Shown: positions 18,342 to 42,723, numbered from the stretch's first letter. The stretch is 64,000 nucleotides of DNA from Candidatus Sumerlaeaceae bacterium (GCA_026418615.1 JAOAAY010000004.1:32874-96873), one strand, 5' to 3'. Translations and numbers: made by a program. The notes: generated by a model not told the origin, from the sequence alone.

Positions 18342-19514
18342 GTGACCACGCGCCGATGTGCCATCATGCATATTGACATCCTCTACGATCCCCAAGCCGC
18401 GGCCGCAAGCGCACGCCGCATGGAGGCTATGTTTTCGTTAGGCATGGCGGACCGGCCGCCGGTCATCTGGGGTGCATGCCCGCGGATGCTGCTGGCCCGA
18501 CGGGGCTCCTCGTTTGCGCGCTTCTTTTCCGACCCCGTCACTCAGGCGACAGAAATCCTGCTCAACCATCAGTGGCTGGCCGAACATGTGCCGGGCGACA
18601 TGGTGACCGGCCTGACCGCCGGCATCCAGCCGCAATTTGAAAATGTCTCCAATTCCCAGTCGCTGGGGGCCGGCGTCCGGTGGGACGACCACCAGCCCCC
18701 GCAGGTCTTGCCGTGCATCCATACGGTGGCCGACCTCGAGGCCTACGAGCCGCCGCCCTTGGAGGGAACCCTCTGGCAGCGCATGATGGATTGGCACCGT
18801 GAAATGAAGGCATGGCTCGAGGGGGGCGGCGTGACCGTCACCATGCGCGGGGAACCGGTCAGTGTCGGCCTCGGTCTCCACATCGGCGGCGAAAGTCCGT
18901 TTTGCGTGGCCGTGGATTTGTGCGGCGCGCTGGCGTACGAGTGGCTGGTGGAGGCGCCCGAGGCCATGCACCGCCTTCTTGGGCTGATCACCGACCGCAT
19001 GATCGAGGTCGAGCGCATGATGCGCCGCCAGACGGGCGAGCCGGAGCGCGGAACATGGTTCCTGACCGACGACTCCGCGCAGATTGTCAGTCTGCGTTCC
19101 TACCGCGAATTTGTCGCGCCCTACAGCCTGCGCTTGTACGAGACCTTTACCGGCCCCGGCGACAAGCGCGTCATGCACTTATGCGGCAACCATGCGCATC
19201 TGTATCCGGCGCTGGTGGAGGACCTGCGGATTTCCGGTATCTGGGGATTCGGCGCCCCCGTCGCCCCCGAACAAGCCCGCGACGCCGTAGGGGGGCGCAT
19301 TTGGCTGGTCGGCAATCTCGATTGCAGCCTGCTTCGCGATGGCCCGCCCGACCGCATCGTGGCCGAAACGCGGCGCTTGCTCGACGCGCTGGGCCCCTGC
19401 GGCGGCCTCGGCGTCGGAGACGGGTACAATCTTATTCCGGATACGCCGCTGGAACATCTGCGGCTCGTCGTGGACACCGTCACGCAATGGGCCGCAGCGC
19501 TCAATCGCCCATGA
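18342..19514 (+). CDS. uroporphyrinogen decarboxylase (URO-D) family protein, MtaA/CmuA-like methyltransferase paralog 1
   Basis: 390 aa with URO-D/MtaA-like TIM-barrel composition (MHLCGNHAHLYPALVE..., C-terminal GGLGVGDGYNLIPDTP). Two further paralogs lie at 29336 and 41665. Confidence 0.7.
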   Translation: MTTRRCAIMHIDILYDPQAAAASARRMEAMFSLGMADRPPVIWGACPRMLLARRGSSFARFFSDPVTQATEILLNHQWLAEHVPGDMVTGLTAGIQPQFENVSNSQSLGAGVRWDDHQPPQVLPCIHTVADLEAYEPPPLEGTLWQRMMDWHREMKAWLEGGGVTVTMRGEPVSVGLGLHIGGESPFCVAVDLCGALAYEWLVEAPEAMHRLLGLITDRMIEVERMMRRQTGEPERGTWFLTDDSAQIVSLRSYREFVAPYSLRLYETFTGPGDKRVMHLCGNHAHLYPALVEDLRISGIWGFGAPVAPEQARDAVGGRIWLVGNLDCSLLRDGPPDRIVAETRRLLDALGPCGGLGVGDGYNLIPDTPLEHLRLVVDTVTQWAAALNRP

Positions 19515-20484
19515 CGGCGTCGCGCAGCGTGTCGCCGACGATGTTGAACGCCAGCATCGTCAAACAAATGGCCGCCGCAGGAAAAAACAGGAGATAGGGC
19601 GCCGCGCGCAGGTTGCTTGCTCCCTCGGCAGCCAGCGACCCCCAACTGGCATCCGGCGCAGGCACGCCCAACCCGATGTAACTCAGGAACGCCTCGGCGA
19701 AAATCGCCTCCGGGATGAACAGAGTCACCGTCACAAGGATGACGCCCGCGCAATTGGGCAGCAGATGGCAGCCGACGACTCGCACGGGGCCCGCCCCCAA
19801 CGCGCGTGCGGCCTGCACAAAATCCCGCTCCTTCAGGGCCAGCACCTCGCCTCGGACGAGGCGGGCCATGTTCAGCCAGTAGGTGAGCCCGATGGCCAAG
19901 TAGATATTAGCCACACCTTGCTCGAGCCAGACCATCAGCAGGATGACCAGCAGGATGGTCGGAATACCGTAAAGGATTTCCACAACCCGCATGAGCAGGT
20001 CGTCCACGCGGCCGCCCGCATACCCCGCCAAGGCCCCCACGCCAACCCCGACCACGAGGTTGATCAGTCCGGCCACGAGCGCGATCTGAAGCGAGATGCG
20101 CGCGCCGGCCAACACGCGCGCCAGCATGTCGCGTCCGAGAGCATCCGTACCGAAGGGATGCGTGCGCGATGGCGGCTGGTACACGGCCGAATAATTGGCC
20201 GTGTTGGGTTCATGCGGCAGCAGGGGTGCCAAGCCCCACGCAGCCGCAACCAGCAGGGCCAGAAAGATGAGGCTGGCTACGGCGGCGCGGTCGCGCACGA
20301 TCCGGCGGACTGCCGCCCGCGCGGGCGAGACGGGCGCGGCGTCGCCCGCCGGCGTCAGAAAAAGGTCAGTCCGGGCTGGCCGCGGCGCCACCGGACTCGG
20401 CCCCGGGAGCAGCCGGCTCAGGATCCGGCCCACGGTCAAGATAACGGTTGATCTCGTCCACAATCGCCGCAACCGCCTCTTCAT
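19501..20484 (-). CDS. ABC transporter permease, oligopeptide/dipeptide (OppC/DppC) family
   Basis: PFGTDALGRDMLARVLAGARISL N-terminal OppC motif and the EAA-like loop ALKERDFVQAARALGAGPVRV. No cognate ATPase or SBP is nearby. The true start is probably internal or non-ATG, because the longest ORF overlaps the upstream gene. Confidence 0.8.
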   Translation of the reverse strand: MKRRLRRLWTRSTVILTVGRILSRLLPGPSPVAPRPARTDLFLTPAGDAAPVSPARAAVRRIVRDRAAVASLIFLALLVAAAWGLAPLLPHEPNTANYSAVYQPPSRTHPFGTDALGRDMLARVLAGARISLQIALVAGLINLVVGVGVGALAGYAGGRVDDLLMRVVEILYGIPTILLVILLMVWLEQGVANIYLAIGLTYWLNMARLVRGEVLALKERDFVQAARALGAGPVRVVGCHLLPNCAGVILVTVTLFIPEAIFAEAFLSYIGLGVPAPDASWGSLAAEGASNLRAAPYLLFFPAAAICLTMLAFNIVGDTLRDAVMGD

Positions 20485-20956
20485 CCGGGGGAGTCGCCGT
20501 CACGCTGACTTCCTCGTCCGTCGCCGTGTTGCGGAAAGTGACGGTTTCGGCGCCCGTCTCGTCGTCACGGTCTGTGCGCAGCCACTTAAAGACCTGAAAC
20601 TTCATCAGCAGGTGCGAGATGACATATAAACGCTGGGCGTTTGCGGCCGCATCCTGCGCCAGCCAGTCAAAATAGGATAGAAGGATGGCGTTGCGCTCGC
20701 GTTTGTTTGCGCGCGTGTCGGGCTTGGGCGGTTCGCGGCGGGCAATCCAGAAGCCATAGTAGCCGCGCTCGCGCACCTCAGGCCAGCATTGCTCGCAAAA
20801 ATCTTCGCGCAGCGGTTCCGCGCCGGCCTCGTCGTCGTCGTCCGGGACCACGGCAAGCACCGACGGGTGCTTCCCACCGGCGGCGATGGCTGCGCCGCAT
20901 TTGGCGCAGGTGTTGCGCGGGCGCGCAATCTTCAGGTAAATCTCTCGGCTCAACAT
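20366..20956 (-). CDS. hypothetical protein with putative C4 zinc-ribbon
   Basis: CAKCG...CEQC cysteine pairs and an acidic C-terminus. Co-directional with the flanking genes. Confidence 0.45.
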   Translation of the reverse strand: MLSREIYLKIARPRNTCAKCGAAIAAGGKHPSVLAVVPDDDDEAGAEPLREDFCEQCWPEVRERGYYGFWIARREPPKPDTRANKRERNAILLSYFDWLAQDAAANAQRLYVISHLLMKFQVFKWLRTDRDDETGAETVTFRNTATDEEVSVTATPPDEEAVAAIVDEINRYLDRGPDPEPAAPGAESGGAAASPD

Positions 20957-21041
20957 GTCGCTCCGTGCAGCGGGAAACTCAGATATTTAAACAGATCTTC
21001 TGCGCATGACACGATGCGCGTCAACCCGCGACTTACCCCGG

Positions 21042-22316
21042 CTATCGCGCCTGATTGGGGCGCGACTCGCGCGTGCCGCCAAGCAGCCACCCTAACCCGG
21101 CCACAGGCGGCCGCGGTGTCTCGTTGTTCGTGACTGCGGCCGGAGCCGGCGGCGTGGCTTCGGCCTGGGTCTTGCGGTATTTCGAGAAAAACATATACCG
21201 CTCCACGACCAGAATGCCGACCCCAAGGAGCAAAACGACCAGCATGGCAGCCGCGACCGTCATCAACCGCTGTTTGATGCGGTCCGCCGATTCCCGGATG
21301 AGCGGGCCGAGCCGAATCCGCACCTGAGCGTCGAGTTCCGAAGCGACAAGCGTCGACACCTGCCGCGGCAACTGCTTGTCGAGCACCTCGGCCAGTGTGC
21401 TCTCGGTCATGTCGGCAATTAAATCCTTTGCCATGCGCGGAACCAGTTTCTGCGCCGCGGCCTCGATGATCGAAACAACCTTTTGCGAAGCATCCGGCAC
21501 GAGGTTTTCGGCCTCCTTCTGGACGCGCCGCTGGACTTCCTTCGGCAGCATCTGATCCAGGCTCGCCTGAAGGTGCTCGCGGAGCATCGGCGGCAGCACC
21601 TGCTCTGCAGCGCGGCGCACGGCCTTTTCCGTCTCCTCGCGCAAGATGACATCAATGGATTCTGTGACGCGCCGCTCCGCAAGTTTCTCGATCATCGAGC
21701 GAGCCACTTCCTGAACGGTCATCTTGACGAGTTCCTGCTCCTTCTCGGCCGTCAACTGGCTGACGCGCTGCTCAACCTCGCGCCGTGCGCGATAATCCAC
21801 CTGGGAAACGACCATTTGCAGGGCGCGCTCGGTGATGATTTGCGTGCGCTGCTCGACGGCCTCCTGCAAGGTGGCCTCTGCCAACTGCTGCATCATGCGC
21901 TCGGCGGCGGCTTTGAGGTGGAGGCGTCCCTCCTCCAGCACCCGCTTCTCCTCGAGCAGCGTCGCCACCTTGCGCGCGAGTACCTCCGGCTCAAACGGCT
22001 TGCGGATGAATCCGTTGGCCCCCAACAGGTCCACGCTTTCGCTGTCCGAGGTTTCATCATCCGGAACCAAAAGCAGGACAGGTTTGTCAAAGAATTCCGC
22101 ATCAGTCCTGAGCGCCCGCGTGAGTTCGGCGCCGCTCAACTCCTTGAGCGATCGGTCAATGACCAGCAGGGCCACTTGGGACAGTTCCGGATAGGCGAGC
22201 GCCGCGATGCCGTTGGCCGCCGCGGCTACACGGTAGCCTTTCATTTCCAGCACACTGCGGCACATGTCCTGAATGGCCGCGCTCTCGTCCACCACGAGGA
22301 TCAATTCACCTGCCAT
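21042..22316 (-). CDS. response regulator: receiver domain, long coiled-coil, and C-terminal transmembrane anchor
   Basis: The receiver domain reads LILVVDESAAIQDMCRSVLEMKGYRVAAAANGIAALA...LLVIDRSL (phospho-Asp) ...GANGFIRKPF. About 250 aa of heptad-rich coiled-coil follow. A terminal hydrophobic helix reads LMTVAAAMLVVLLLGVGILVV. Confidence 0.75.
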   Translation of the reverse strand: MAGELILVVDESAAIQDMCRSVLEMKGYRVAAAANGIAALAYPELSQVALLVIDRSLKELSGAELTRALRTDAEFFDKPVLLLVPDDETSDSESVDLLGANGFIRKPFEPEVLARKVATLLEEKRVLEEGRLHLKAAAERMMQQLAEATLQEAVEQRTQIITERALQMVVSQVDYRARREVEQRVSQLTAEKEQELVKMTVQEVARSMIEKLAERRVTESIDVILREETEKAVRRAAEQVLPPMLREHLQASLDQMLPKEVQRRVQKEAENLVPDASQKVVSIIEAAAQKLVPRMAKDLIADMTESTLAEVLDKQLPRQVSTLVASELDAQVRIRLGPLIRESADRIKQRLMTVAAAMLVVLLLGVGILVVERYMFFSKYRKTQAEATPPAPAAVTNNETPRPPVAGLGWLLGGTRESRPNQAR

Positions 22317-22337
22317 CCGGGCGCCTCCTTGGGGTCA

Positions 22338-29335: not shown

Positions 29336-30394
29336 TCAAACCCTGATGGGGTAGTCCCCCAGCCGCTGGCAGGCTTCGAGCATGGTTATGTAATTTTCGT
29401 ACTTCGCGTAGTCGGGCACACTGTTGCTCGAGCCGAGCGCGTAGCCGCCGCCGGGAGCAGCGCGGCGCAGCCGGTCGCGGACGAGCGCCTCCACCTGCTC
29501 CGGAGTCCCGCGCGCCAGCGTGTCCACCTCAATGCTGCCCAGCACGGCCAGCCGCCCGCACGCGCGCTCTTTCACCTCAGCCACATCCATGGATTTCGGC
29601 TCGATGGGATGCAGCGAGGTCACCCCGCACGCAATCAGGTCCTCCAGCACCTCCCAAAGCACCCCGTCGCTGTGGTAGAGGAACGGGATGCCGCGCGCCC
29701 GGCACAGCGCACCAATCTTCGCCACCCATGGGAACAAATGCTGGCGGTAAACTTTCGGGCTGACCATCAGCCCCCCCGTATAGGCAAGGTCGTCCGAATA
29801 CCAAAGCGCCTGCACCCTCGGAAACTCCGCCATGTGCTCAAACAAATGATAGATGAGCGCCCCAACGCACTGAAACAGCGCCTCGACCAGTTCCGGCTGC
29901 TCGAAAAGCGCCATGGCAAAGTTCTCGAATCCCATGACCTCCCAGACAAAAGTAAATATGTCGCCATATTGCCCGATGACAGCCATCTCATCCGGCAGAA
30001 TGCGCTCGGCCTCCTCGAAGCGCGCGTAACTCACCGTGTCAGGGTCCGGCCAGGGGAACTGCTCGAAATCCTCCATCGAGCGGATTGCCCCCTCGCCCTC
30101 CGCGGCCCAGTTGCGGTCCATGGCTGTCTTGGTCGCACCCATGTGGGGAACCACGCGCTTCCAACCCGGGCTCAACGAGATGCCGGGCTGCAACTTGATG
30201 TAGTCGTAACCCGCCCGCCGCGCAAATTCGATCTCGTCCGCCACCGAAATGCACGGACGACCGATCGCCTCTGATTTCCAGATCGGGTGAACTCCCAACT
30301 CGATGAGCGGCACACAATCCGGCTCGCCCTCGCACAACAGCGCACGCCGCAACCGCTGCCAGTCGGGCTTGCGTGTCAAATGATCCAATGTCAT
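29336..30394 (-). CDS. uroporphyrinogen decarboxylase (URO-D) family protein, MtaA-like paralog 2
   Basis: 352 aa, URO-D family fold composition (…ALWYSDDLAYTGGLMVSPKVYRQHLFP…FLYHSDGVLWEVLEDLIACGVTSLHPIEP…). Similar in length and architecture to the ORF at 41665. Confidence 0.7.
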   Translation of the reverse strand: MTLDHLTRKPDWQRLRRALLCEGEPDCVPLIELGVHPIWKSEAIGRPCISVADEIEFARRAGYDYIKLQPGISLSPGWKRVVPHMGATKTAMDRNWAAEGEGAIRSMEDFEQFPWPDPDTVSYARFEEAERILPDEMAVIGQYGDIFTFVWEVMGFENFAMALFEQPELVEALFQCVGALIYHLFEHMAEFPRVQALWYSDDLAYTGGLMVSPKVYRQHLFPWVAKIGALCRARGIPFLYHSDGVLWEVLEDLIACGVTSLHPIEPKSMDVAEVKERACGRLAVLGSIEVDTLARGTPEQVEALVRDRLRRAAPGGGYALGSSNSVPDYAKYENYITMLEACQRLGDYPIRV

Positions 30395-30721: not shown

Positions 30722-33700
30722 ATGAGGCAATTCGTACGGATTTCTGCGTGGGCGGCTGCAGTGGCTGTTGGGATGTTGGCGGGGTTGTCAGCGGGCGCGA
30801 GGCCCGCTCAAGGGCCGGATGCGGCGCCCAAAACCGTTCGCGTGGAGGTGCTCGACGCTTCCGGCAAACCGGCCAGAGGGGCCGAGGTCGCTCTGGTGAC
30901 GCTCAGGTTCGGGCGGTTTGACGGCTGGCGAGAGGCCCCGGACGGCAAGGCCGAATTGGCAATCCCATCCGACCAGAACAGATTTGGGCTTGAGGAGTCC
31001 GCACAAGAGGAGATCGCAGCGCGGGCACCCGGCCACGCGCCTGCCACGGTCAAGTGGAATCCCGAAAGCGGTTCGTCAGCCACGGTGCGGCTCAAACGCG
31101 GCAAGCGCGTCAATTTAGAAATCAAAACCGCTGATGGCCGGCCGTTGCCGGAAGGAGTTCTACCCGTCGTTTTTGCGCCAAAGACTCGCATGCAAGTGTT
31201 GAGGCCCTTAGTATCCGCCTTCGGCACCACTTCGGGACCACTGTTCCATTATTATCGTGTCGAACAACGCGCACCGGGCCGTTTCAGTGTCATGGTCTCA
31301 CCGGAAGACGGGCCGTTGACTGTTTATGTGGACTGTCCCGGTCTGCTGCGCGGATTTGTGAGCGAGGCATTTGAGCCCAAAGCGTGGGACAAGCCGCTCA
31401 TCGTTCAACTGCCCGCGGCCGGGACGGTCGTCGCCACCTTCGAGCCCAAGCCCGCCATCCGCACCGACCTGACGACTTTCATCGTCAGCCTGCGGGGGAA
31501 GGATCCGATGCCGGCCTTTTACGATCTCGCCGCCGTGGTGTCGGGCGCCGGGCAGCCGCGACGCGCGGTGTTCCCGGATCTTGCCCCCGGACAATACGAT
31601 ATTCTGGCCGAGACCGGAACTGGATGGGTGAAGCGGGCATGGGCTGGTCCGGAAACAGTTGCCGTCCAGGGCGGCTCCTCGGCCACGGTTGCTCTCAAGC
31701 AACGGCCAGCCTTACCGGCGTTGCGGGTGACCGACGCGGCGACCACCGGCCGCCCCGTGAGGGCATCCGCATTTGTGATTCGCAAACAGCGTGACTTATT
31801 CCTGCTGACGGGCACGGGCTGGGTCCCTGTTGGGCCTGACGGCCGCATCCGCTTTGACATGAACCAATTTGCCCCCCGCGACCCATGCGAGGACGCGAGT
31901 CCGTGGGAGTATCCGGTACTGGTCAAGGCACCCGGATTTGCTCCGAAAACCTTGACGCTTCGTACCTCGACTGTCGCCACGACGGAGGTCATTGTCCCTC
32001 TTGAACGCGGCAATCCGATCGAAATTGTTCTCGAACCGCCCGAAGGGATGTCCATTCCGGAAGACCTCATCCCCGCCGTGTGGTTTCCACCTTTTGGTCC
32101 GATCCTCGGCTTGATACCCTATACGACGAGCCTGCAGGAGGTTTGGGCACAATCGCCGGTGCTCGATACGGAAAGGATCGCGCCGGGACGCTACAGGGTC
32201 CGCATCACCACGGGCACAGAACAGTTGGTGGTCGGCGTTCACCACTCAAGGTTCCTGCGTGGATTTGTGTCGGATGTTTTCTCTCTTCAGGATCTCTCGG
32301 GCAGCCCGCTTGTGCTCCGGCTGCCCAAACCCGGCGGCCTTGAGGTCACCGCAGATGTGCGCGAATACTTAAAAACACCGGGACCCAAACCGGATTCCAT
32401 TGAACTGACCATGATGCCCGCTGAGGCGGGTGACCGCATGCCCATCAACGCCTTGGGCTGGCAACGCAGACTTGGCCTACAAGACGGAATAGCCTCTTAC
32501 CAGGCGGCAGATCTGGCCCCCGGGCGCTATGAGGTTTTCATCACGGCGGCTTTTGACGCGGGTGACGACCAGCGCAAAACATTGAGCGGCAATTCCGAGT
32601 TGAAAGTTGAGTCCGGCACGACAGCCACCGCAACGATCGCCCTGTCCGACACCACCAGCCGTCGCGGTCCCCGGCAATTTGCTTTGCCTGAGGTTCGCGT
32701 CCTCAGCGCGACCGGCAAACCCGTGACCAATGCCCGGGTCTTTGCTCGCCGGGTTGGCGACGAGATGAATGTCACGCGGGGTGAGGCGGCCGGCGACGGC
32801 CGTTACCAATGCAAGCCATTGGTTGCATGGTCCATGACAACGGGGGAACCGTTGACCTCGGCCACGGCGGAATTGCTCGTCACCGCACCGGGTCACACCG
32901 CAACGACCATGACGCTTGAGGTGCCGACCCGCCAAAATCTGATCACGGTGCGACTGAAAAAAGGTCGCGAGGTGGAGTTGCGCCTCAACCCTGCCGAGGG
33001 AACTTCCATCCCGGAGACCCTTGAGCCGATCATCTGCGACGAGACGATGCTAGGCGCTGCATGGATCGGGCTTTCACCCGACTCGGCAGACAAAGGGTTT
33101 TCTCTGGCCAGTGTCACGCGGACCGGCACTGGACGCTACACTTTCCAAGTCGCCAAGGAGACAAGCGGACTCTATGTGCTGATCCACGAGCCCGGCTTCC
33201 TGCGAGGATTTCAAGCAGGCCCCTTCGGGGCGGACCAAGTGGCCAAAGGGCGCATTGAAGTGGACTTGCCGAAACCGGTGACGCTGACCGCACGGTTCCG
33301 TCCTGCGAAGCCCGACACCCCTGCCACTTATACAGCGTGCTGGGCCGCGATTGACCGCCTCGTGATGCTGCCCGGGGAGAGATTCATGTACATGAAGATC
33401 GCCCAAACCGAAGCGGCCGGCACGACGCTCGAAGCACAGTTCTCCGATCTCGCGCCCCTCGACTTGAGGGGCCGGTATAGCGTCGAGGCTGGTACAGGGC
33501 GTTTATCCGAGCGGTTTGGGCCGCCTGGACAATCCTACAGCGACCGCGCCGAGGCGGACTTCCAGGACGGCACCAGTGCCACAGTTGAAATCCTTTACGA
33601 GCCCTTCGACCGCGACATGCTCAAAGGACCGTACACGGCTGTTGTGACGGTGCTCGGGCGAGACGACAAACCTTTGGATGGAAAGCCGTTCCGCGTCACT

Positions 33701-34423
33701 TATTACGACCGCAAATTCGGCCCCCACACCGTCGCTCAGGGAACCATTCCGTCATCGGGTGTCGTGGAATTGCGCGGACTGGCCGGCGGCGTGGACAAAC
33801 CGACCTCTTTGAGCGAATTTCGCGGGAAATTTCCACCAACTTATACTTTTACCATCGGCGACGAGGATATTGGCTCCATCCAATTCGTCAAATTCGACCG
33901 CCAGAGCGGGCTGGTATTGCCGGCACATACCGATCAGGTGGCCGAATTCACTTTCCGGATGCCGCCGGTCGTCGGCGATATGGCACCGGATATCGAATTG
34001 ACCGAAGTTTTCGGCGACGGGACGCTGCGTCTCTCCGATCTGAGGGGACAGGTCGTTTTCCTCGATTTCTGGGCCACATGGTGCGGCCCGTGTCAGGATC
34101 CCATGAAGGCGCTCAACGAACTGGCTGCCAAACACAAGGATGACTGGGCAGGGAAGGTCGCGCTGATCGGGGCCAGCATTGACGACAACAAGGCTACGGT
34201 GCAGAAACATGTGAAAAAGAAAGGCTGGGAGAGCGTGCGCCAAATGTGGTGCGCCGTGCCGGATGGCTCAGGCGGCTGGGAAGCCCCGCAAGTGCGCACC
34301 TACGGCGTTCGCGGCGTGCCCACCGCCCTCCTCATTGATCAGCAGGGCCGCATCGTCTGGCGGGGGCATCCGGCCGGATTCAACAAAGAGGGCGAAATCA
34401 CACGGCTGCTGCAAAGCAAGTAA
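30722..34423 (+). CDS. giant secreted protein: three carboxypeptidase-regulatory-like/beta-sandwich repeat modules fused to a C-terminal TlpA/ResA-like thioredoxin domain
   Basis: Signal peptide MRQFVRISAWAAAVAVGMLAGLSAGA. Repeated modules containing VRVEVLDASGKPARGAEVAL-type starts and PGLLRGFVSEAF / SRFLRGFVSDVF / PGFLRGFQAGPF. C-terminal LRGQVVFLDFWATWCGPCQ thioredoxin-fold active site. Confidence 0.8.
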   Translation: MRQFVRISAWAAAVAVGMLAGLSAGARPAQGPDAAPKTVRVEVLDASGKPARGAEVALVTLRFGRFDGWREAPDGKAELAIPSDQNRFGLEESAQEEIAARAPGHAPATVKWNPESGSSATVRLKRGKRVNLEIKTADGRPLPEGVLPVVFAPKTRMQVLRPLVSAFGTTSGPLFHYYRVEQRAPGRFSVMVSPEDGPLTVYVDCPGLLRGFVSEAFEPKAWDKPLIVQLPAAGTVVATFEPKPAIRTDLTTFIVSLRGKDPMPAFYDLAAVVSGAGQPRRAVFPDLAPGQYDILAETGTGWVKRAWAGPETVAVQGGSSATVALKQRPALPALRVTDAATTGRPVRASAFVIRKQRDLFLLTGTGWVPVGPDGRIRFDMNQFAPRDPCEDASPWEYPVLVKAPGFAPKTLTLRTSTVATTEVIVPLERGNPIEIVLEPPEGMSIPEDLIPAVWFPPFGPILGLIPYTTSLQEVWAQSPVLDTERIAPGRYRVRITTGTEQLVVGVHHSRFLRGFVSDVFSLQDLSGSPLVLRLPKPGGLEVTADVREYLKTPGPKPDSIELTMMPAEAGDRMPINALGWQRRLGLQDGIASYQAADLAPGRYEVFITAAFDAGDDQRKTLSGNSELKVESGTTATATIALSDTTSRRGPRQFALPEVRVLSATGKPVTNARVFARRVGDEMNVTRGEAAGDGRYQCKPLVAWSMTTGEPLTSATAELLVTAPGHTATTMTLEVPTRQNLITVRLKKGREVELRLNPAEGTSIPETLEPIICDETMLGAAWIGLSPDSADKGFSLASVTRTGTGRYTFQVAKETSGLYVLIHEPGFLRGFQAGPFGADQVAKGRIEVDLPKPVTLTARFRPAKPDTPATYTACWAAIDRLVMLPGERFMYMKIAQTEAAGTTLEAQFSDLAPLDLRGRYSVEAGTGRLSERFGPPGQSYSDRAEADFQDGTSATVEILYEPFDRDMLKGPYTAVVTVLGRDDKPLDGKPFRVTYYDRKFGPHTVAQGTIPSSGVVELRGLAGGVDKPTSLSEFRGKFPPTYTFTIGDEDIGSIQFVKFDRQSGLVLPAHTDQVAEFTFRMPPVVGDMAPDIELTEVFGDGTLRLSDLRGQVVFLDFWATWCGPCQDPMKALNELAAKHKDDWAGKVALIGASIDDNKATVQKHVKKKGWESVRQMWCAVPDGSGGWEAPQVRTYGVRGVPTALLIDQQGRIVWRGHPAGFNKEGEITRLLQSK

Positions 34424-34449
34424 ACATCTTGATCAAGGGGGTAGAGACC

Positions 34450-36384
34450 ATGCGAAAGTCTCACAGAAACCTGCTGCTGGCCGCGCTGGCGACACTCGCG
34501 ATCCTGACGATCGCACCAGTCGCCGACGCCAATGAGCCTTCGGGTGACCCATCGGCTCAGGTTCACCCGTTGCTCGCCCACATGCCAGAACGGTTCAGAC
34601 GGACGGCGGAAGTCGTCCCAATGTACGCTCCGCCGCTGATGGTTGTTGCCGCTGATGACGGGTTGCCGGTCACCAGCGCCTCGCTGGCGCTCATGTCCGA
34701 CTCCGGTCCGTTCGAAAACACTTCGGCGACACATGAAGGCAGGGGGCGCTACCGGTTCGCTCCGCTGGAACAGATCCGGTCCAAATCGAGGACGATGACC
34801 ACACAGTCCCTCTCCTTGTTAGTCACGGCACCAGGGTTCGTGCCGGAGACGACCTCGATCGTGCTCAATGAAAGGGCGCCCCTGCCGGGCGAGATGACTG
34901 TCCGCCTCGGCCGGGGGCGTCCCGTCACGCTGGAGATCACCCGCGAGGACGGGCAGCCGCTGCCCCAAACCTTGGAACCCATCATAGCCGACCGGGACAC
35001 GCTGGAGGCCATTTGGTGCACGCTCGGATGGCAGACCGGCCCCTTGCGTTTTGGTTTGTATCCCGTGCGGCGCATGGCCCCGAACCGCTGGGAGTTTGGC
35101 GCCAAACCCGGGCAGCATGAGGTTTTTGTGATCGTGGACGAACCGGGGCTGTTGCGGCACTTCGTGGCCGGGCCGTTGAATGTGGAGGACGGCACAACGG
35201 CCTCCCTCATAGTGCGCCTGCCGAAGGCTTGTGCAATCACCGCACGGTTTCGCCCCGCGGAGGGTGTCGCCCGGCCAGCCTACCGCCGATGCACACTGGC
35301 GGTGACGCGCTCTGTCGATGTGCCGGGCGGCAAACCATCAAACTACGGAACCACCGTGGCCTCGTTCACTGGCGAAGGACCCACGGTAGAGCATGTGTTT
35401 GACGATCTGGCCCCGCCCACGGACGACTCTGGCTACTGGGTGCAAGCCATGACAGATCCGCACCCCGCTGAAGGGCTCGACGGGAAATACGCTTTCTCCG
35501 GCGGCGATTCCCCGGATTTTGGCAACGGGACCTCAGCCACCGTGGAAATCCTGTACAAGCCACTCAGCATTCGTCAGGTGCAGGGCGGGCTGACGGCCGT
35601 CGTCCGGGTGACGAATGCAAAAGGCGAGCCGGCAGCCGGCAAACCGTTTGAACTCCTGTGGCACCCCCGCAACTATCCCGAGGTTACGCTGACCTCGGGC
35701 ACCATCCCGACATCCGGGGTTGTGGAATTTCCGGGTTTGGGGGGCGCACCGGAAAAAGTCATGACAATAGCCGAAGCCCAAAAATCCGGATGGGAGCCAG
35801 CCCATCTGGAGTTTGTCCTCGACGGGGAAAGCGCGGGAATGATACGGTTTTTCCAGGTGGATGAGAAGGCGGGCGTTGTCCGGCCGGCGGTTGATGACAA
35901 CCGGCGCGTGTTCGAGTTTCGAGTTCCGCTGCGACCGGGCGACGAGACGCCAGATATCGAGTTGACTGACCTCGCAGACGGCCGGGTGTTCCGGCTCTCC
36001 GATTTGCGCGACCAGGTGATCTATCTCGATTTCTGGGCGACCTGGTGCGGGCCCTGCCAGCGACCTATGCATGAACTGGACGATCTCGCCCGACGCCGCG
36101 CGGCCGAATGGACGGGCAAGGTGTCGCTCATCGGGGTGAGCATAGACGAGACGACAGAGGTCGTCGTGCGGCATCTGGAGAAAAACGGTTGGACTGCGGC
36201 ACGGCAGGCTTGGTGCCATCCGGTTTCCGGCTCGACAGGCCGTGCGTCGGCGCAGGTCAAAGCCTTTCAAGTGACGGGATACCCGACGGCGTTTCTTATC
36301 GGCGCAGACGGAAAACTGATTTGGACGGGGTATCCCGGCCCCGAAATTGAAAGCATCATTGAGAAGGCCCTCGGCAGCCGCTGA
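34450..36384 (+). CDS. secreted paralog of upstream gene: one repeat module plus TlpA-like thioredoxin domain
   Basis: Signal peptide MRKSHRNLLLAALATLAILTIAPVADA. EPGLLRHFVAGPL and GTSATVEILYKP repeat the upstream protein, and LRDQVIYLDFWATWCGPCQ is the active site. The gene sits 26 nt downstream of the preceding gene, and an RBS AAGGGGG precedes the ATG. Confidence 0.8.
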   Translation: MRKSHRNLLLAALATLAILTIAPVADANEPSGDPSAQVHPLLAHMPERFRRTAEVVPMYAPPLMVVAADDGLPVTSASLALMSDSGPFENTSATHEGRGRYRFAPLEQIRSKSRTMTTQSLSLLVTAPGFVPETTSIVLNERAPLPGEMTVRLGRGRPVTLEITREDGQPLPQTLEPIIADRDTLEAIWCTLGWQTGPLRFGLYPVRRMAPNRWEFGAKPGQHEVFVIVDEPGLLRHFVAGPLNVEDGTTASLIVRLPKACAITARFRPAEGVARPAYRRCTLAVTRSVDVPGGKPSNYGTTVASFTGEGPTVEHVFDDLAPPTDDSGYWVQAMTDPHPAEGLDGKYAFSGGDSPDFGNGTSATVEILYKPLSIRQVQGGLTAVVRVTNAKGEPAAGKPFELLWHPRNYPEVTLTSGTIPTSGVVEFPGLGGAPEKVMTIAEAQKSGWEPAHLEFVLDGESAGMIRFFQVDEKAGVVRPAVDDNRRVFEFRVPLRPGDETPDIELTDLADGRVFRLSDLRDQVIYLDFWATWCGPCQRPMHELDDLARRRAAEWTGKVSLIGVSIDETTEVVVRHLEKNGWTAARQAWCHPVSGSTGRASAQVKAFQVTGYPTAFLIGADGKLIWTGYPGPEIESIIEKALGSR

Positions 36385-36518
36385 TGGTCATCCTTAACTT
36401 TTGAACGGCACGGAGGGAATGCCCGCCGCCGGGCTATTGTTCTGTTGTGATAAAGTCCGCGACGGCTGCCCTCCGGCTGCCGTTCGGTTGACAATTGTAT
36501 TGCAGGATAACTCAACGG

Positions 36519-37526
36519 ATGACCGAGGTCCCACCGGCGCACCCCAACAGGCGCCTCTCCAGATTCGCCGCGTTCGTCGCGGGTTACACCTTCGTCCTCA
36601 TCACTGCGGGGGCGCTTGTCACCGGCAACAATGCGTCGCTGTCCGACCACACCTGGCCTACCTTTGCCGGTAATGTGTTGCCGGCCAAAGAGACCTTTGT
36701 CCGCGGCCTGATTTACGAGGACACGCATCGCATCCTCGCGGGCGTGTTTGGCTTGCTGGTCATCGCGCTGGCTCTCTGGGTTCAGTTCACCGATCGCCGC
36801 CTGTGGCTGAAGTTGCTGGCGTGGGGGGTGGTTGTGGCGACCGGCCTACAGGGGCTTGTGGGAGGAGTCATTATCCTGTACCTGCGGCCGGTGCTGGTCT
36901 CGATGCTGCACGGTGTGCTGGGGCAAAGTATTTTCATCGGTGCGGCGGTCATTGCGGCGGCCACCTCGCCGCTCTGGGAGCGCGAGCACGGCAGTGCAGG
37001 CGTGCGGCCGGGCGTCGTGGCCTTTCGTGTGCAGTGTGTGCTGGCGACGGCGCTTGTCTTTGGCCAGTTGATTCTCGGTGCGGCGACGCGTTTCGCCTAC
37101 GGCTTTTTTACTTATCTCGTCGTGCTCCATGTCTGCATGGCCTTTCTCATCATTGCAGCAGCCATCTGGCTGGGCATGACGGTATCGCACCATTTCCGGG
37201 ATGTCGCGCCGTTGCGGCGCTCATTTGTCCGTCTCGGCTGGCTGATCGGCACCCAAGTCTTGCTGGGTATCGTGGCCATCTTTGCGAACCGGTCCCGCTT
37301 CGAGTTGGAATTGAAAGGCCCGATTCCCGAGGCCCAGTTCGGCCTTGAACTCGAAGCACCTCATCAGTTCCTGGTGCTGCTCTCCACGGCGCATGTTGCT
37401 GTGGGGGCACTCATCCTGATTACCATGGCCTTGATCACAATTCTGTCTTTCCATCTGCTGAGTGCGGAGCCCGCCGAGGAACGCAGCATGAACCGGGCAG
37501 GCTTGGCCGAGGGTGAGGCGGCGTGA
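36519..37526 (+). CDS. ctaA: heme A synthase (COX15/CtaA family)
   Basis: Polytopic membrane protein with conserved His-containing helices (HRILAGVFG, HGVLGQSIF, HVCMAFLII, HVAVGALIL). Its stop overlaps the ctaB start (GTGA). Confidence 0.8.
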   Translation: MTEVPPAHPNRRLSRFAAFVAGYTFVLITAGALVTGNNASLSDHTWPTFAGNVLPAKETFVRGLIYEDTHRILAGVFGLLVIALALWVQFTDRRLWLKLLAWGVVVATGLQGLVGGVIILYLRPVLVSMLHGVLGQSIFIGAAVIAAATSPLWEREHGSAGVRPGVVAFRVQCVLATALVFGQLILGAATRFAYGFFTYLVVLHVCMAFLIIAAAIWLGMTVSHHFRDVAPLRRSFVRLGWLIGTQVLLGIVAIFANRSRFELELKGPIPEAQFGLELEAPHQFLVLLSTAHVAVGALILITMALITILSFHLLSAEPAEERSMNRAGLAEGEAA

Positions 37527-38428
37527 GGTTGCGAACCGCCACGGCTGTCATGGACGGCCCGTCGCAGGGTATTGCGGCGCGCCTGTCGGACTACCTTGAA
37601 CTCACCAAACCCGGCATCGTGACGATGACGGTGGTCACCACCGCGGGGGGCTACTACATGGCGCATTCCGGAGCACTGGATCTGTGGCGGTTTGCGCATG
37701 CGCTGATGGCCTCGATGCTGCTGGCGGCGGGCGCTTGCGCGCTCAACCAATATATGGAACGCGATGTGGACGCCCTGATGGAGCGCACGCGACGCCGCCC
37801 CCTCGCGGCCGGCCGCATCGGAGCCGCCGGCGCCTTTGCGTTTGGTCTGATGTTGGCATTGTCCGGGCTGGCTTACCTGACCTTTGGGGTGAACCTCGCT
37901 GCGGGCGCTGCCGGGGCGCTGGCCTTGGGCAGTTATATCCTTGTCTACACCCCGTTCAAACGGGTCAGCAGTCTGTGCACGCTGGTCGGCGCCATTCCGG
38001 GGGCGATGCCCCCTGTCATCGGCTGGGCGGCGGCCACTGGCGGTATCGGCTTCGGCGCCGGCGTATTGTTTGCCATCATGTTCCTTTGGCAAATCCCCCA
38101 TTCGCTGGCCATCATGTCCATGTACCGGGAGGACTATGCCCGGGCCGGTCTGCCGCTGCTGCCAGTGGTTGACACAACGGGCGAGGCCACCGTGCGCCAG
38201 TCGCTCGTGAACGCGGTCGCGCTGCTCGTGGCCTGCGTCATGCCATCGGTCGCGGGAATGACCGGTTTGACTTACGCCGCAGGCGCAGCGTTGCTGGGCG
38301 GTTGGTTTCTCTATCTGAATGTGCGCTGGTTTCTTGATCCGGCGCGCCCGCGTGCGCGGCGCGTGTTTTTCGGCTCGCTCATCTACCTGATGGCACTTTT
38401 CGCCCTGCTGGTCGCCGGCAAGGTCTGA
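37523..38428 (+). CDS. ctaB: protoheme IX farnesyltransferase (heme O synthase), UbiA family
   Basis: ALNQYMERDVDALMERTRRRPLAAGRI (Asp-rich prenyltransferase motif) and a nine-TM UbiA topology. The GTG start overlaps the ctaA stop. Confidence 0.85.
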   Translation: MRLRTATAVMDGPSQGIAARLSDYLELTKPGIVTMTVVTTAGGYYMAHSGALDLWRFAHALMASMLLAAGACALNQYMERDVDALMERTRRRPLAAGRIGAAGAFAFGLMLALSGLAYLTFGVNLAAGAAGALALGSYILVYTPFKRVSSLCTLVGAIPGAMPPVIGWAAATGGIGFGAGVLFAIMFLWQIPHSLAIMSMYREDYARAGLPLLPVVDTTGEATVRQSLVNAVALLVACVMPSVAGMTGLTYAAGAALLGGWFLYLNVRWFLDPARPRARRVFFGSLIYLMALFALLVAGKV

Positions 38429-38440
38429 CCGGCGCGCCCG

Positions 38441-39079: not shown

Positions 39080-39130
39080 CGGTGGTATCGCCTCCGTGGC
39101 GAGGTTTTATCATTTACCGTCTCCGTTTTT

Positions 39131-39168: not shown

Positions 39169-39259
39169 TATTTGACCGTAGCCGTCGTCCGGTGAAATGC
39201 AACGCCGCTTGACGATTCCCGGGCACGCGGCTGTAGTCCTCGGTGGCTGCGCGCCAAAA

Positions 39260-39336
<77 letters not shown>

Positions 39337-39492
39337 CCCCCGCTCGCGCTCCGAAATCCGTCTCGCCGAGGCGCCAAGCCGGGCAACCATGAGTCCGACT
39401 CGGCACAACATCAGTTGGACGGGTCCGATTCCCTATCGTGATGCCGGGATCGCCCCGCTCAAACGCTCATAGAGCCCCGATGGCGCCCCCCA

Positions 39493-40293
39493 TCAGGCTT
39501 TTGGCGGTGAAGACGGCTGGTTGCCCTTGTTGAGCAACGATTCGATGTTGAAGGTCTTCATGAACTCGATCGGAAACGGGAACACGATCGTCGAACTCTT
39601 TTCCGCCGAGATCTCGACGAGCGTTTGCAGGTAGCGCATCTGCATGGCCATCGGATGCGCGGACATCATGTCGGCCGCCAGAACCAGTTTTTCGGCAGCC
39701 TGATACTCGCCCTCGGCACTGATGACCTTGGCGCGGCGCTCGCGCTCGGCCTCGGCTTGGCGCGCCATGGCCCGCTGCATCTCCTGCGGCAAATCCACCT
39801 TTTTGATTTCCACGGCCGTCACCTTCACGCCCCACGCGTCAGTCTGCCGATCCAGGATACTTTGCAGTTCCAGGTTCAGTTTCTCACGCTCGCTTAACAA
39901 GTCGTCGAGTTCCTGCTGGCCCAGCACGCTGCGCAAGGTCGTCTGAGCCATCTGGCTCGTCGCAAAAAGAAAATCCTCGACGGCCACCACGGACTTGGCC
40001 GGATCGAGCACCTGAAAGTAGACCACGGCATTCACATGCACCGACACATTGTCGCGGGTAATGATGTCCTGCGGCGGTACATCCAAGGTGATGATCCGCA
40101 GACTTACCCGCACCATCCGGTCAATCGGCCAGAAGATGAGCACAAGACCGGGTCCCTTGGGCTTGCTCAGCAGGCGCCCCAACCGGAACACCACAGCCCG
40201 CTCATACTCGTTCAGGATCTTGATGCATTGAAAAAGGTAAAACAACACGAAAAGGACAACGGTGATTACGGGCGACCCTGTCGGAAATGGCAT
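39493..40293 (-). CDS. SPFH/band-7 (stomatin/prohibitin-like) membrane protein
   Basis: An N-terminal TM helix is followed by the SPFH core ([67 protein letters not shown]...) and a C-terminal coiled-coil [17 protein letters not shown]. Confidence 0.8.
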
Positions 40294-40812
40294 GGCGAAT
40301 GCCTCCTCTGTTCCGGGATGACAGATTTGTGGTTCAAACATTACCAACGCGCCCAAGAGGTCAAGCACATGCGGCCAGCGTATGCTTCACAGAATCCCGA
40401 AGCCATTGGTCCGCAAACAATCCCTCGGCGACCCCAATGATCGGGCTGTACGCCCGTTTGCCATCGGACCCTCCCCATGGTCCCTGAGAGTCTTGCCCCC
40501 TGCCAGCCGGGGACAAAAAACATTTCCAGTGGCCCGATACGCTGCCGGGCTGGGTTAATCCGGCCGTCCATCCACATCCCGTAAGTCCCCCCTCCGGTGC
40601 AAACCGCCTTCACAGACACAAGGCTGTCCAAAGATATTAAGGCGCACCTATTCCAGCGCGCCAAGAACACCACTCACCAAATCTGTCTTGCATCCGGGTC
40701 GTGTCGCCTGCGGCTTGGCCGCACAGGATATCAAACGGGCAGGGTCCGCGGGCGTGATTGCGCCCCCGGTTTCTGTGTGGCTTGGTGCCTGAAATTGATG
40801 GGGAGTTGATCC

Positions 40813-41649
40813 ATGTATTCGTTATATCGGGTTCTGTCTTTGCGAGCCGTGGCTTCGATCTTATGCATGTCCTTTTCTTGTGCCGGGATCCAGGCCGCCA
40901 TCAATACCTACGATTTTCAGACCACGACGGGAGTTTACACGGCCGGCGTGACAATCCTGAACCCGCCGGCACCGCCCGACGGTACGGGACGGATTCGCAT
41001 CGGCTCGCAGGCGGGCAGTTTCACTTTTGCCAATCCGGGAAACCCGGCGGTGGGCACCGATTCGGAACTTGTCGGCGTTGCGGCCTCGGGGGCTTCTGTC
41101 AACAAGTTCAGTGTTTATGGCTATACGGCGGACAAAACCTTTCACACCCGTTTCACGATGCTGCTGACGGGCGGATCCAGCGGCTATTGGCAGTTCTTCC
41201 AAGGCGCCGGATCCATGTATTCCGACAACAACTCGTGGACAGGGGCGCAGATCTTCACGGGTATCGAATGGGCCTTGGGCGCCGGTGGCACCGTTTCAAC
41301 GCGCCGGCGCGTTGCCGCCTCGTGGACATCTCCAGACACGACGACCTTCGCGCAGAACACCGTGTATAACATCGAAATTTACGGCAACAACTCGACAGCC
41401 GCCGCCACCTACAGCCGCGGCGGTAACACCTACACCGTGGCTGCCAACCAGTGGGACATGTGGGTCAACGGCACGCGGTACGCCGGTTTGGCCAAAGGAT
41501 CGCTGGCAAATGACACCAATGTGGACTCGTTCGTCTTCATGGGCGGCAGTTCCACGGGCAATGTGGCCACAATCATTCTTGATGACTTCCTGTACGGCGG
41601 CGATTTGGCGACCGTGCCCGTGTCCGTGTCGCAGTTTTCCGTGGAGTAG
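40813..41649 (+). CDS. hypothetical secreted protein (possible beta-sandwich/lectin-like)
   Basis: Signal peptide MYSLYRVLSLRAVASILCMSFSCAGIQA. Thr/Gly/Asn-rich beta-strand composition. No catalytic motif. Confidence 0.5.
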   Translation: MYSLYRVLSLRAVASILCMSFSCAGIQAAINTYDFQTTTGVYTAGVTILNPPAPPDGTGRIRIGSQAGSFTFANPGNPAVGTDSELVGVAASGASVNKFSVYGYTADKTFHTRFTMLLTGGSSGYWQFFQGAGSMYSDNNSWTGAQIFTGIEWALGAGGTVSTRRRVAASWTSPDTTTFAQNTVYNIEIYGNNSTAAATYSRGGNTYTVAANQWDMWVNGTRYAGLAKGSLANDTNVDSFVFMGGSSTGNVATIILDDFLYGGDLATVPVSVSQFSVE

Positions 41650-41664
41650 TCCGCAGGCATCCGA

Positions 41665-42723
41665 TCAGTAGGCGCCGTACTGCCGGGCAAGGCTGAGGGC
41701 GCGCCGGTACTGGTCATAACTGACATTGGGCGGCACGCTGTGGTCGCTGTGAAAGATGTAGCCACCATGGCGCTTGGCGGCTTCCAATTTGGGAATAATC
41801 TCGCGCTCGAGAGCGGCCGGGTCCGGGTCGGCCATGGCGCGCGTGTCAATGTTGCCCATGAACGACAGACAGTCGCCATACTGGTTGACGAGTTGGCACA
41901 CATCCATGCCGGCCTTGACCTCGAGTGGCTGGAGGCAATCCACGCCAGCCTCGATCAGGTGGGGTATGAGCAGGTGGATATCCCCGTCGGTATGATAGAT
42001 GACCGGCGCGCCGCGCGCGTGGTGAAAAGAGCACAGCGCGCGGTCAGACTCCAGGATGGTCTCGCGGTAGAGTTTCGGCGAGAACAGCGGGCCGTTGCGG
42101 TAGGCCATGTCGTTGAAAAACCATGCCGCGTCAGGCTCGAAGCCCGCGGCAATCACCATTTCCGTCATCCTGAGGGTCAACTCGGCGACCGTCTCGACCA
42201 TCTCGCGGAACCAGCGCGGGTTCTCGATCATGATGACGAGCAGTTCCTCGGTCTTGATAAGGTTTTGCAGGTAATCAAAACCGATGACGGCGTTGAGAGT
42301 GACGCATTTGCCCTCGGAGCGGGCACGCTGGTAGCGGCTGCGCAGCGTGACCCAATCGCAGCGCGTGTAGTCGGGCTGGAGGCGCTCCTTCACACGCAGC
42401 CAGTCATCATAAGTTTTGACGCCCCAGTCAATGATTTCGGGTGTGCTGGCCAAAGAGCGCAAGTTGCGCCGGACGCCGCCGAAAGGCGTGGTCTCGACTA
42501 CATATTGGTCGTCGGCGTGAAGGGTTTTGATTTCGAACATCGGGGAGTTGTCAAACCAGATGCTGACGATCTCCCAACCGAAATGGTCTTCGGGGGAAAT
42601 CCCGGCCGGGTATCCCTCGCGTTCCCAACGGCGCATCGTCTCGACCCACACAGAATCGTGGATGGGGACGCGATCGGCCTTGTCGCGCCTGAGTGCCCTC
42701 AATACGCGTTCGCGGCTATCCAC
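41665..42723 (-). CDS. uroporphyrinogen decarboxylase (URO-D) family protein, MtaA-like paralog 3
   Basis: 352 aa, URO-D family composition (…VIYHTDGDIHLLIPHLIEAGVDCLQPLE…GYIFHSDHSVPPNVSYDQY…). Co-linear similarity with the ORF at 29336. Confidence 0.7.
   Translation of the reverse strand: MDSRERVLRALRRDKADRVPIHDSVWVETMRRWEREGYPAGISPEDHFGWEIVSIWFDNSPMFEIKTLHADDQYVVETTPFGGVRRNLRSLASTPEIIDWGVKTYDDWLRVKERLQPDYTRCDWVTLRSRYQRARSEGKCVTLNAVIGFDYLQNLIKTEELLVIMIENPRWFREMVETVAELTLRMTEMVIAAGFEPDAAWFFNDMAYRNGPLFSPKLYRETILESDRALCSFHHARGAPVIYHTDGDIHLLIPHLIEAGVDCLQPLEVKAGMDVCQLVNQYGDCLSFMGNIDTRAMADPDPAALEREIIPKLEAAKRHGGYIFHSDHSVPPNVSYDQYRRALSLARQYGAY

Follow-up and report, generated by a model that had tools for sequence, protein, structure and literature searches.

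Three mutually distant UroD-superfamily genes in a Candidatus Sumerlaeaceae contig and their probable link to corrinoid-dependent methyl transfer

Corrinoid methyltransferases of the uroporphyrinogen decarboxylase (UroD) superfamily decide which methylated compounds can be demethylated by anaerobic and microaerobic microbes, including methoxylated aromatics, methyl halides, methyl sulfides and selenides. To our knowledge, most methyltransferase clades of this superfamily have no known substrate, and no methyl-transfer metabolism has been characterised in Sumerlaeota. Here we analyse three UroD-superfamily genes, U1, U2 and U3, in a stretch of 64,000 nucleotides (hereafter the window) from a Candidatus Sumerlaeaceae bacterium (GCA_026418615.1 JAOAAY010000004.1:32874-96873). 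Judged by sequence comparison, they are intact genes from three subfamilies of UroD (URO-D/MtaA/MetE-like TIM-barrel) proteins that are old and only distantly related to one another. We think it rather probable that all three are methyltransferases of the corrinoid-protein-dependent branch, with U2 and U3 as enzymes of the methyltransferase I (MT-I) type and their partners encoded elsewhere in the genome. Use of a corrinoid by the Sumerlaeaceae proteins is suggested by the gene context of orthologues only, and the direction of methyl transfer and the kind of substrate by residue patterns as well.

The first-pass annotation of the window had treated the family as one normally present as a single hemE copy, a premise that does not hold, as the UroD superfamily is large and multi-copy and comprises many methyltransferase clades (PMC10418091, PMC13222342); many of its corrinoid methyltransferase clades have no assigned substrate (PMC13222342, PMC10418091). 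Compared to the methylcobamide:coenzyme M (CoM) methyltransferases MtaA, MtbA and MtsA (TIGR01463; 4AY7), U1–U3 show 11–17% identity and score 22–66 bits against NCBIfam cut-offs of 235–600; His-Cys-Cys is replaced by His-Cys-Tyr (with an Asp nearby), His-Asp-Asn and His-Asp-His in U1, U2 and U3, respectively. Furthermore, the host is bacterial, without a CoM context, and the window lacks an adjacent corrinoid protein, such a neighbour being present for some orthologues only. U1–U3 are likely to share their role, transfer from a substrate to a Co(I)-corrinoid protein, with the MT-I enzymes of the superfamily, such as the O-demethylases OdmB, VdmB, MtvB and MtoB and the chloromethane dehalogenase CdmB (PDB 9RUI; PMC13222342). 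As in the O-methyl MT-I enzymes (PMC10418091), U2 and U3 have carboxylates or non-ligands where the Cys ligands would be; CdmB is matched weakly by the profiles of the U1 family (2.9e-9) and the U2 family (3.6e-5); and, as in three-component MT-I systems, some orthologue operons hold a corrinoid protein and a second methyltransferase. In contrast, U1–U3 have no close sequence relationship to characterised MT-I enzymes, the acceptor enzyme in orthologue operons is a homocysteine S-methyltransferase (HcyMT) or an MtaA-like protein rather than a pterin-binding methyl-tetrahydrofolate methyltransferase, and the hosts of the three families are Sumerlaeota, Fibrobacterota-Chlorobiota-Bacteroidota (FCB) group and Armatimonadota lineages rather than acetogens. 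Unlike HemE (TIGR01464), U1–U3 contain metal-ligand-type motifs, and no haem-biosynthesis genes adjoin them. Like the MtaA-like proteins of type 1 mlp clusters (PMC10418091), they are several divergent UroD paralogues in one genome, derived from old separate lineages and presumed to depend on a corrinoid; none of the features that define a type 1 mlp gene cluster (PMC10418091) was found for U1–U3. A literature search returned nothing on the U1–U3 subfamilies, on UroD paralogues in Sumerlaeota or on an operon of URO-D, corrinoid-protein and HcyMT genes, and only incidental mentions of Sumerlaeota with corrinoid and of Marinimicrobia with MtaA. Most likely, U1–U3 are uncurated new members of an already known corrinoid-methyltransferase superfamily, with substrates unassigned.

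The three genes and their subfamilies

The open reading frames (ORFs) proposed earlier at 18342-19514 (+), 29336-30394 (-) and 41665-42723 (-) are all present, with the start of U1 placed at ATG 18366 instead of GTG 18342 by all homologues, by the family alignment and by the NCBI call MCX7717125.1. The three proteins are identical to NCBI entries of a Candidatus Sumerlaeaceae (Sumerlaeota/BRC1) metagenome-assembled genome (MAG), on a contig of 191,877 bp, where the Prokaryotic Genome Annotation Pipeline (PGAP) labels U1, U2 and U3 alike as ‘hypothetical protein’. Their proposed membership of the URO-D family was borne out by Pfam PF01208, whose gathering score of 23.9 bits is passed by U1 (92.1 bits, E 4.5e-26), U2 (65.0 bits, E 7.9e-18) and U3 (73.2 bits, E 2.5e-20). 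Family profiles, one per gene, recovered exactly U1, U2 and U3 among all stop-to-stop ORFs of the window, and confident structure models place all three in the (beta/alpha)8 barrel fold of the URO-D type. The G+C content at third codon positions (GC3) is 0.80 for U1 and for U2, and homology searches returned 13, 1821 (word-index hits) and 2627 homologues for U1, U2 and U3, respectively, from which we conclude that the reading frames are real. Pseudogenes were ruled out by the full-length ORFs, the retention of family-invariant residues and the confident models. A 664-aa ORF runs opposite U3 and its upstream gene with a GC3 of 0.66, compared to ~0.7-0.8 typical for the window; this is a high-GC shadow ORF that would be preferred by a naive gene caller, whereas the U3 frame is backed by homology.

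Pairwise identities among the three proteins are 20–29% (24% over 141 aa for U1 and U2, 20% for U1 and U3, 29% for U2 and U3), and homology is clear at the profile level only (hhalign: 99.9% with E 4e-35 for U2 and U3, 97.5% for U1 and U3). U1 has just eight close relatives (54–98% identity), after which identity drops to 27%, and its family is rare, since 1.84 billion cluster representatives, searched exhaustively with its profile, yielded 62 clusters, defined at 50% identity, at E<=1e-30. For U2, 375 relatives were found in 185,579 species genomes, the best 80 of which (46–63% identity) derive from Sumerlaeota (21) and Marinimicrobia (14) as well as from Calditrichota, KSB1, Ignavibacteriota, Bacteroidota, WOR-3, Zixibacteria and others, while orthologues 50–67% identical to U3 occur in Armatimonadota, Chloroflexota, Latescibacterota, Handelsmanbacteria and Omnitrophota. 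Because U1–U3 share only 20–29% identity, and because U2 and U3 belong to old cross-phylum subfamilies with 50–67% identical orthologues in many other phyla, the lineage-specific expansion suggested by the first-pass annotation is unsupported; for the same reasons a recent duplication was rejected.

Next to the hemE equivalog model TIGR01464, with its cut-off of 302.95 bits, U1 reached 29.4 bits, falling short by about 270 bits, U3 reached 21.6 bits and U2 gave no match. The MtaA/CmuA-type NCBIfam models tested (TIGR01463, NF004889 and the equivalogs NF040654 for MtaA and NF041608 for MtbA; cut-offs 235–600 bits) gave at best 66.1 bits for U1, 36.9 for U2 and 36.6 for U3, and the best NCBIfam model for U1 was the MtaA-type PRK06252 (66 bits against a cut-off of 244). 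Among solved structures, the best sequence matches of U1 were HemE enzymes (E 5e-9 with the single sequence, 3e-13 with the family profile); single-sequence searches returned no match for U2 and weak HemE matches only for U3, both of which needed profiles for structure matching. The HemE alignments begin at residue 97 or later in U1 and cover only ~102-346 in the U2 family and ~215-347 in the U3 family, and a sequence region alignable with the N-terminal substrate-binding part of HemE was found in none of U1, U2 and U3. In human and bacterial HemE structures, that part carries a conserved Arg-rich motif and the catalytic Asp. Orthology to HemE was rejected for all three on the NCBIfam scores and the missing N-terminal alignment, and by these comparisons none of them is HemE, canonical MtaA, MtbA or CmuA, or a member of a curated subfamily. 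Neither of the outcomes that had been named in advance as fatal to the earlier proposal, one orthologous hemE copy beside degenerate ones or three members of an annotated subfamily, was observed: none of the three is hemE, all of them are intact, their NCBIfam scores lie far below every cut-off and PGAP assigns them no function.

Ligand positions and gene contexts of orthologues

To each family alignment we added a fragment of MtaA (4AY7, motifs ‘HICG’ ... ‘PGCG’), which maps the three zinc ligands of that enzyme. In U1 they correspond to H271 (19176-19178), C273 (19182-19184) and Y354 (19425-19427), the first two within an MtaA-like ‘MHLCGN’ motif. The residues D352 and N355, which flank the third position, are invariant in the U1 family alignment; in the wider family (n=60), H271 is kept in 59 sequences, C273 in 54 (Asp in 5), D236 in all 60, Asp/Glu352 in 55 and N355 in 50, with position 354 being variable. 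The U2 profile places His241 (29672-29674) and Asp243 (29666-29668) on the His and first Cys of MtaA and Asn324 (29423-29425) on the Cys of ‘APGCGIAP’, and these three residues, together with E265 (29600-29602), are invariant in 120/120 family sequences. In U3, the family profile ‘vilHsCGdv’ aligned with ‘VLHICGNV’ of MtaA (4AY7), and the positions are occupied by His244 (41992-41994), Asp246 (41986-41988) and His328 (41740-41742); H244, E268 and His325-Ser-Asp327-His328 are invariant, and position 246 is Cys in 77/120 and Asp in 43/120 sequences, an alternation expected for a metal ligand.

The His-Cys-Cys zinc sphere (PMC10418091; 4AY7) is retained in none of the three, which read His-Cys-Tyr (U1), His-Asp-Asn (U2) and His-Asp-His (U3), and the ‘MtaA/CmuA type’ assigned to them earlier is therefore only loosely true. 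In the UroD superfamily, S-methyltransferases have His-Cys-Cys, whereas O-methyltransferases carry Asp/Glu or non-coordinating residues in place of one or both Cys (PMC10418091, Kountz & Balskus). By this rule U2 and U3, in which carboxylates or non-ligands take the place of the Cys ligands, and in part U1, which keeps one Cys and has the conserved Asp/Glu352 near the third position, look like enzymes acting on non-thiol, probably O-methyl, substrates.

The gene context of U2 was sampled at the best 80 of its 375 relatives, one locus per species, using a hidden Markov model built from the corrinoid proteins of these loci and confirmed by Pfam PF02310+PF02607 and by NCBIfam ‘methyltransferase cognate corrinoid protein’. 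We observed a same-strand corrinoid-protein gene within 1.5 kb at 20/80 loci and within 200 bp at 18/80, frequently with overlaps of a few bases, including loci from Sumerlaeota (L035) and WOR-3. Clustering of the flanking ORFs additionally revealed a stand-alone HcyMT (~300 aa, PF02574, 214 bits) at 15/80 loci, in 13 of which it adjoins U2 or is separated from it by the corrinoid-protein gene only. Altogether, one or the other is present at 32 of the 80 loci: all five from Calditrichota have the corrinoid protein, and 13 of 14 from Marinimicrobia, as well as one of 21 from Sumerlaeota, have either. Recurrent architectures are HcyMT–corrinoid protein–U2 in Calditrichota (L074, L084, L086) and U2–HcyMT in Marinimicrobia, with two further Marinimicrobia loci (L072, L076) showing corrinoid protein–U2–MtaA-like, in which the third gene carries HICGN and matches mtaA_cmuA at 153 bits. 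Since U2 and the corrinoid protein are the constant elements and the variable partner is thiol-methylating (HcyMT or MtaA-like), U2 would carry out the other half-reaction, from donor to Co(I).

A seven-gene island in a KSB1-like MAG (L060, JACKDE010000001.1, 2050-10777) consists of URO-D, corrinoid protein, MtaB (543 bits), U2 and another three URO-D paralogues whose motif is HSDG or HSCG, which suggests that methanol and other methyl donors feed one corrinoid protein in a lineage that is neither methanogenic nor acetogenic. The earlier view of corrinoid-dependent enzymes with unknown substrates is the direction in which such contexts point. Two other recurrent blocks beside U2, CN-hydrolase / C5-epimerase in KSB1 and Cytophagia-labelled MAGs and GmhB-Ddl-CysS in Marinimicrobia, were judged to reflect lineage synteny without a functional link, and the immediate neighbours of U2 in the window are not conserved in other Sumerlaeota. 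Several U2 orthologues (P0056, P0086, P0099, P0114; loci L011-L013, L036) carry the NCBI label ‘nucleoside 2-deoxyribosyltransferase’, probably a propagated error, as each is a URO-D barrel (PF01208) over its full length and, in the WOR-3 example, a corrinoid protein comes next.

For U3, 80 metagenome loci were sampled, of which 48 had usable flanking DNA on either side. A corrinoid protein was found at 4/80 loci and extra URO-D paralogues within 6 kb at about 10/80. The closest orthologues outside Sumerlaeaceae (L101-L103; 63–65% identity, of the HTDG type as in the window), probably one species sampled three times, have a 415-aa U1-like ‘IHLCG’ paralogue directly upstream. An unusually dense UroD-type cluster (L100, JABAHQ010001584.1:1-11310) starts with the 3' end of a corrinoid-protein gene, followed on one strand over 11 kb by seven URO-D ORFs, including a 65% identical U3 orthologue, and an APH-family kinase. 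At another locus (L149), sugar-type ABC transporter genes precede a U3-like gene, a corrinoid protein, U3 and another URO-D gene. Recurrent neighbours of U3 are partly sugar-related, namely GFO/IDH/MocA oxidoreductases, ROK kinases and sugar-isomerase barrels. Four independent loci (L001-L004) were available for U1, at one of which (L001) MtaB (PF12176) and an MtaC-like corrinoid protein come after P0007, the 54% identical orthologue.

Proposed role and alternative explanations

In the model that we favour, the barrels of U2 and U3 would bind a methylated donor, probably oxygen-linked or otherwise non-thiol, at a site formed by His, Asp, His or Asn in some cases, and Glu, which may or may not hold a divalent metal. 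The methyl group would be abstracted by a separate Co(I)-corrinoid protein docked on the barrel mouth, and the resulting methyl-corrinoid would be discharged by an acceptor methyltransferase. Other lineages have an MtaA-like enzyme or an HcyMT, which would yield methionine, in this place; here the acceptor enzyme could be U1 or an unlinked enzyme. With its His-Cys pair and carboxylate, U1 may act as a methyl-corrinoid:acceptor enzyme (MT-II-like) or as another MT-I, and the corrinoid protein, a reductive activase and the final acceptor methyltransferase would be encoded outside the window.

Several observations weigh against this model. As the first-pass annotation had stated, U1–U3 stand alone without an adjacent corrinoid protein, and there is no B12-binding protein in the entire 64 kb; profiles and Pfam searches of the larger ORFs detected no corrinoid protein, activase, MtaB or homocysteine methyltransferase in the window, nor does it contain a cobalamin riboswitch. 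The U2 loci of Sumerlaeota lack an adjacent corrinoid protein in 20 of 21 cases and lie in housekeeping neighbourhoods, and ~95% of the U3 loci (about 76/80) have no corrinoid neighbour, being solitary genes in housekeeping contexts. For U1, a corrinoid link was seen in one of four independent contexts, the orthologues at L002 and L003 lying in unrelated ones. The metal site and cofactor of U1–U3 are likewise putative, drawn from alignment, and residue patterns are weak predictors of substrate, because CdmB is a UroD-family MT-I that needs neither zinc nor any other metal (PMC13222342).

The same observations would fit U2, U3 and perhaps U1 being corrinoid-independent, metal-dependent barrels with a small molecule as their direct target, for instance through MetE-like alkyl transfer or HemE-like decarboxylation, with the corrinoid neighbours reflecting some clades only. 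Most orthologues are indeed solitary in unrelated housekeeping neighbourhoods, neither a corrinoid protein nor an HcyMT is found at 48/80 U2 loci and about 76/80 U3 loci, the fold is equally close to HemE and MtaA, with cobalamin-independent MetE-type barrels as the next structural neighbours, and the recurrent sugar-related company of U3 could be read in the same sense. However, corrinoid genes are rare, and yet they abut 18-20/80 U2 orthologues on the same strand, often overlapping, and U2 is embedded in islands with corrinoid-protein, MtaB and MtaA-like genes; the decarboxylase variant is further opposed by the wide margin to the hemE equivalog. We therefore regard corrinoid independence as somewhat unlikely. 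That U1 is a highly divergent but functional HemE supplying haem appears very improbable. The best structure matches of U1 are HemE enzymes, the organism needs haem, as the ctaA and ctaB genes in the window imply, and the N-terminal stretch ‘DRPPV.W...RRG’ presumably resembles the N-terminal motif of HemE. Nevertheless, U1 scores 29 bits against the 303 required by TIGR01464, and higher (66 bits) with MtaA-type models, the match starts at residue 97 and leaves the N-terminal catalytic region unaligned, an MtaA-like H-x-C-G motif is present in 54/60 family members, one orthologue adjoins MtaB-MtaC, and a haem enzyme would be expected to be common, not confined to 62 clusters.

A further possibility, compatible with the favoured corrinoid-dependent model, is that U1–U3 form a deliberately co-localised unit, with U1 as MT-II and U2 and U3 as MT-I sharing a distant corrinoid protein. 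With 10–20 paralogues in an assumed ~3.5-Mb genome, 0.02-0.17 such triples would be expected per genome, and three genes in 24.4 kb exceed chance only mildly; in ~213 kb of flanking DNA from other Sumerlaeota we found one extra URO-D ORF. In the nearest outside lineage (L101-L103) a U1-like gene adjoins U3, and URO-D paralogues cluster in other genomes (L060, L100, L149). Against this, the three genes lie on different strands, with gaps of 9.8 kb between U1 and U2 and 11.3 kb between U2 and U3 that contain 10 and 9 unrelated housekeeping genes, other Sumerlaeota do not keep the genes next to U2, and L101-L103 probably represent a single species. Co-localisation by design thus seems quite unlikely, and the 24-kb proximity is probably loose or fortuitous, with no operon.

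A more specific version of the corrinoid-dependent model is that the U2 family is the donor-activating part of a split, three-component, corrinoid-dependent system forming methionine, in which the UroD barrel replaces the pterin module of MetH and the donor is non-folate, probably O-methylated, leaving the Sumerlaeaceae U1–U3 as orphan input and output modules. The components proposed for it, a U2-type barrel (His-Asp-Asn), a small corrinoid protein and a stand-alone HcyMT, are encoded in Calditrichota, in Marinimicrobia and in FCB-group and candidate phyla related to them. Put in this full form, we regard the idea as speculative and doubtful.

Surroundings in the window and significance

With 62% G+C and Pfam annotation of every sizeable ORF, the window appears as an ordinary chromosomal region (Table 1). 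A first block of genes for an ABC exporter, an M50 protease, FabG, PIN-TRAM, RsmB and a small S-adenosylmethionine (SAM)-dependent methyltransferase leads up to U1. An OppC-type permease, response regulators, FKBP, an ABC-3 permease, GAF-HD and ComM/YifB lie between U1 and U2; two large thioredoxin-fold proteins, CtaA, CtaB, LexA, tRNA-Met and SPFH lie between U2 and U3; and past U3 follow an unknown proline-rich protein, a polysaccharide deacetylase, a U32 peptidase, a TrxR-like protein, TopA, HisG and a polysaccharide-synthesis block.

Table 1. Coordinates of features in the 64-kb window, counted from its first nucleotide.
Feature	Coordinates	Strand	Description
U1	18366..19514	+	382 aa; UroD superfamily, rare subfamily; NCBI MCX7717125.1, N2111_01815
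U2	29336..30394	-	352 aa; UroD superfamily; NCBI MCX7717135.1, N2111_01865
U3	41665..42723	-	352 aa; UroD superfamily; NCBI MCX7717143.1, N2111_01910
rsmB	16272-17678		
Small SAM-dependent methyltransferase	17743..18315	+	Pfam; after rsmB, 50 nt upstream of U1
ctaA + ctaB	36495-38428	+	Haem A and haem O synthases; COX15-CtaA, 343 aa; UbiA-type protohaem farnesyltransferase, 301 aa
Proline-rich protein	42736-43755	-	339 aa; no Pfam match; ends 12 nt upstream of U3
ORF opposite U3	41740-43734	+	664 aa; shadow ORF
Two thioredoxin-fold proteins	30722-36384	+	1233 and 651 aa, in tandem
DUF3419 and UbiE-type genes	55916-58311	-	DUF3419 protein 460 aa (404 bits), then SAM methyltransferase
Small ORF	56641-56919		Unannotated
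Low-GC patch	53539-55900		
Cys-rich protein	54651-55442	-	Secreted-looking; galaxin-like repeats
DUF7948 protein	9925-13602	+	1225 aa; SBBP beta-propeller repeats
Type-IV-pilin-like protein	5906-6685	+	N-methylation motif

Scans for promoter and terminator consensus sequences performed no better than on shuffled sequences, and transcription units were therefore deduced from spacing. U1 follows the same-strand SAM methyltransferase gene, with which it may be co-transcribed, any functional link being one of context only; at its 3' end it shares 14 nt with a convergent permease gene. PIN-TRAM, RsmB, small methyltransferase and U1 follow each other in the same order in an 86%-identical relative (L004), and this order was not found in the three more distant U1 contexts. 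U2 appears monocistronic, standing alone between convergent comM/yifB (99 nt) and a divergent thioredoxin-fold gene (327 nt). U3 closes a series of genes on one strand (topA ... U32 peptidase, deacetylase, unknown, U3), and it probably shares a transcript with the gene for the proline-rich protein, no homologue of which adjoins U3 orthologues in the 80 metagenome loci.

The ctaA and ctaB genes, which overlap by 4 nt, show that the organism makes haem O and haem A. They are the sole haem-related genes in the window, the 64 kb of which contain no haem-biosynthesis gene, hemE included. As they adjoin none of the paralogues, the first-pass remark that these have no haem-pathway neighbour is right for direct adjacency, but not more widely, since the pair is located between U2 and U3. 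Directly upstream of ctaA/ctaB, each of the two large proteins has a C-terminal AhpC/TSA-thioredoxin-fold domain and an N-terminal part without a Pfam match; possibly they act as thiol-disulfide oxidoreductases in connection with oxidase assembly.

Elsewhere in the window, the DUF3419 and UbiE-type genes, separated by a 242-nt gap that holds the small ORF, form a pair which we take to resemble BtaA/BtaB of betaine-lipid (diacylglyceryl-trimethylhomoserine, DGTS) synthesis. The low-GC patch (0.57 compared to ~0.63), which contains unannotatable ORFs and the gene for the Cys-rich protein, may have been horizontally acquired. The DUF7948 and pilin-like proteins are encoded by cell-surface genes that are common in such genomes and have no relation to U1–U3.

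For annotation, these results imply that genes resembling U1–U3 should not be labelled hemE or mtaA. Sumerlaeota are shown to carry three clades of the UroD superfamily, two of which are widespread across uncultured phyla and have a ligand set of the non-thiol type. The most interesting lead is the recurrent operon of U2, corrinoid protein and HcyMT, which may represent a new route for salvaging methyl groups into methionine.

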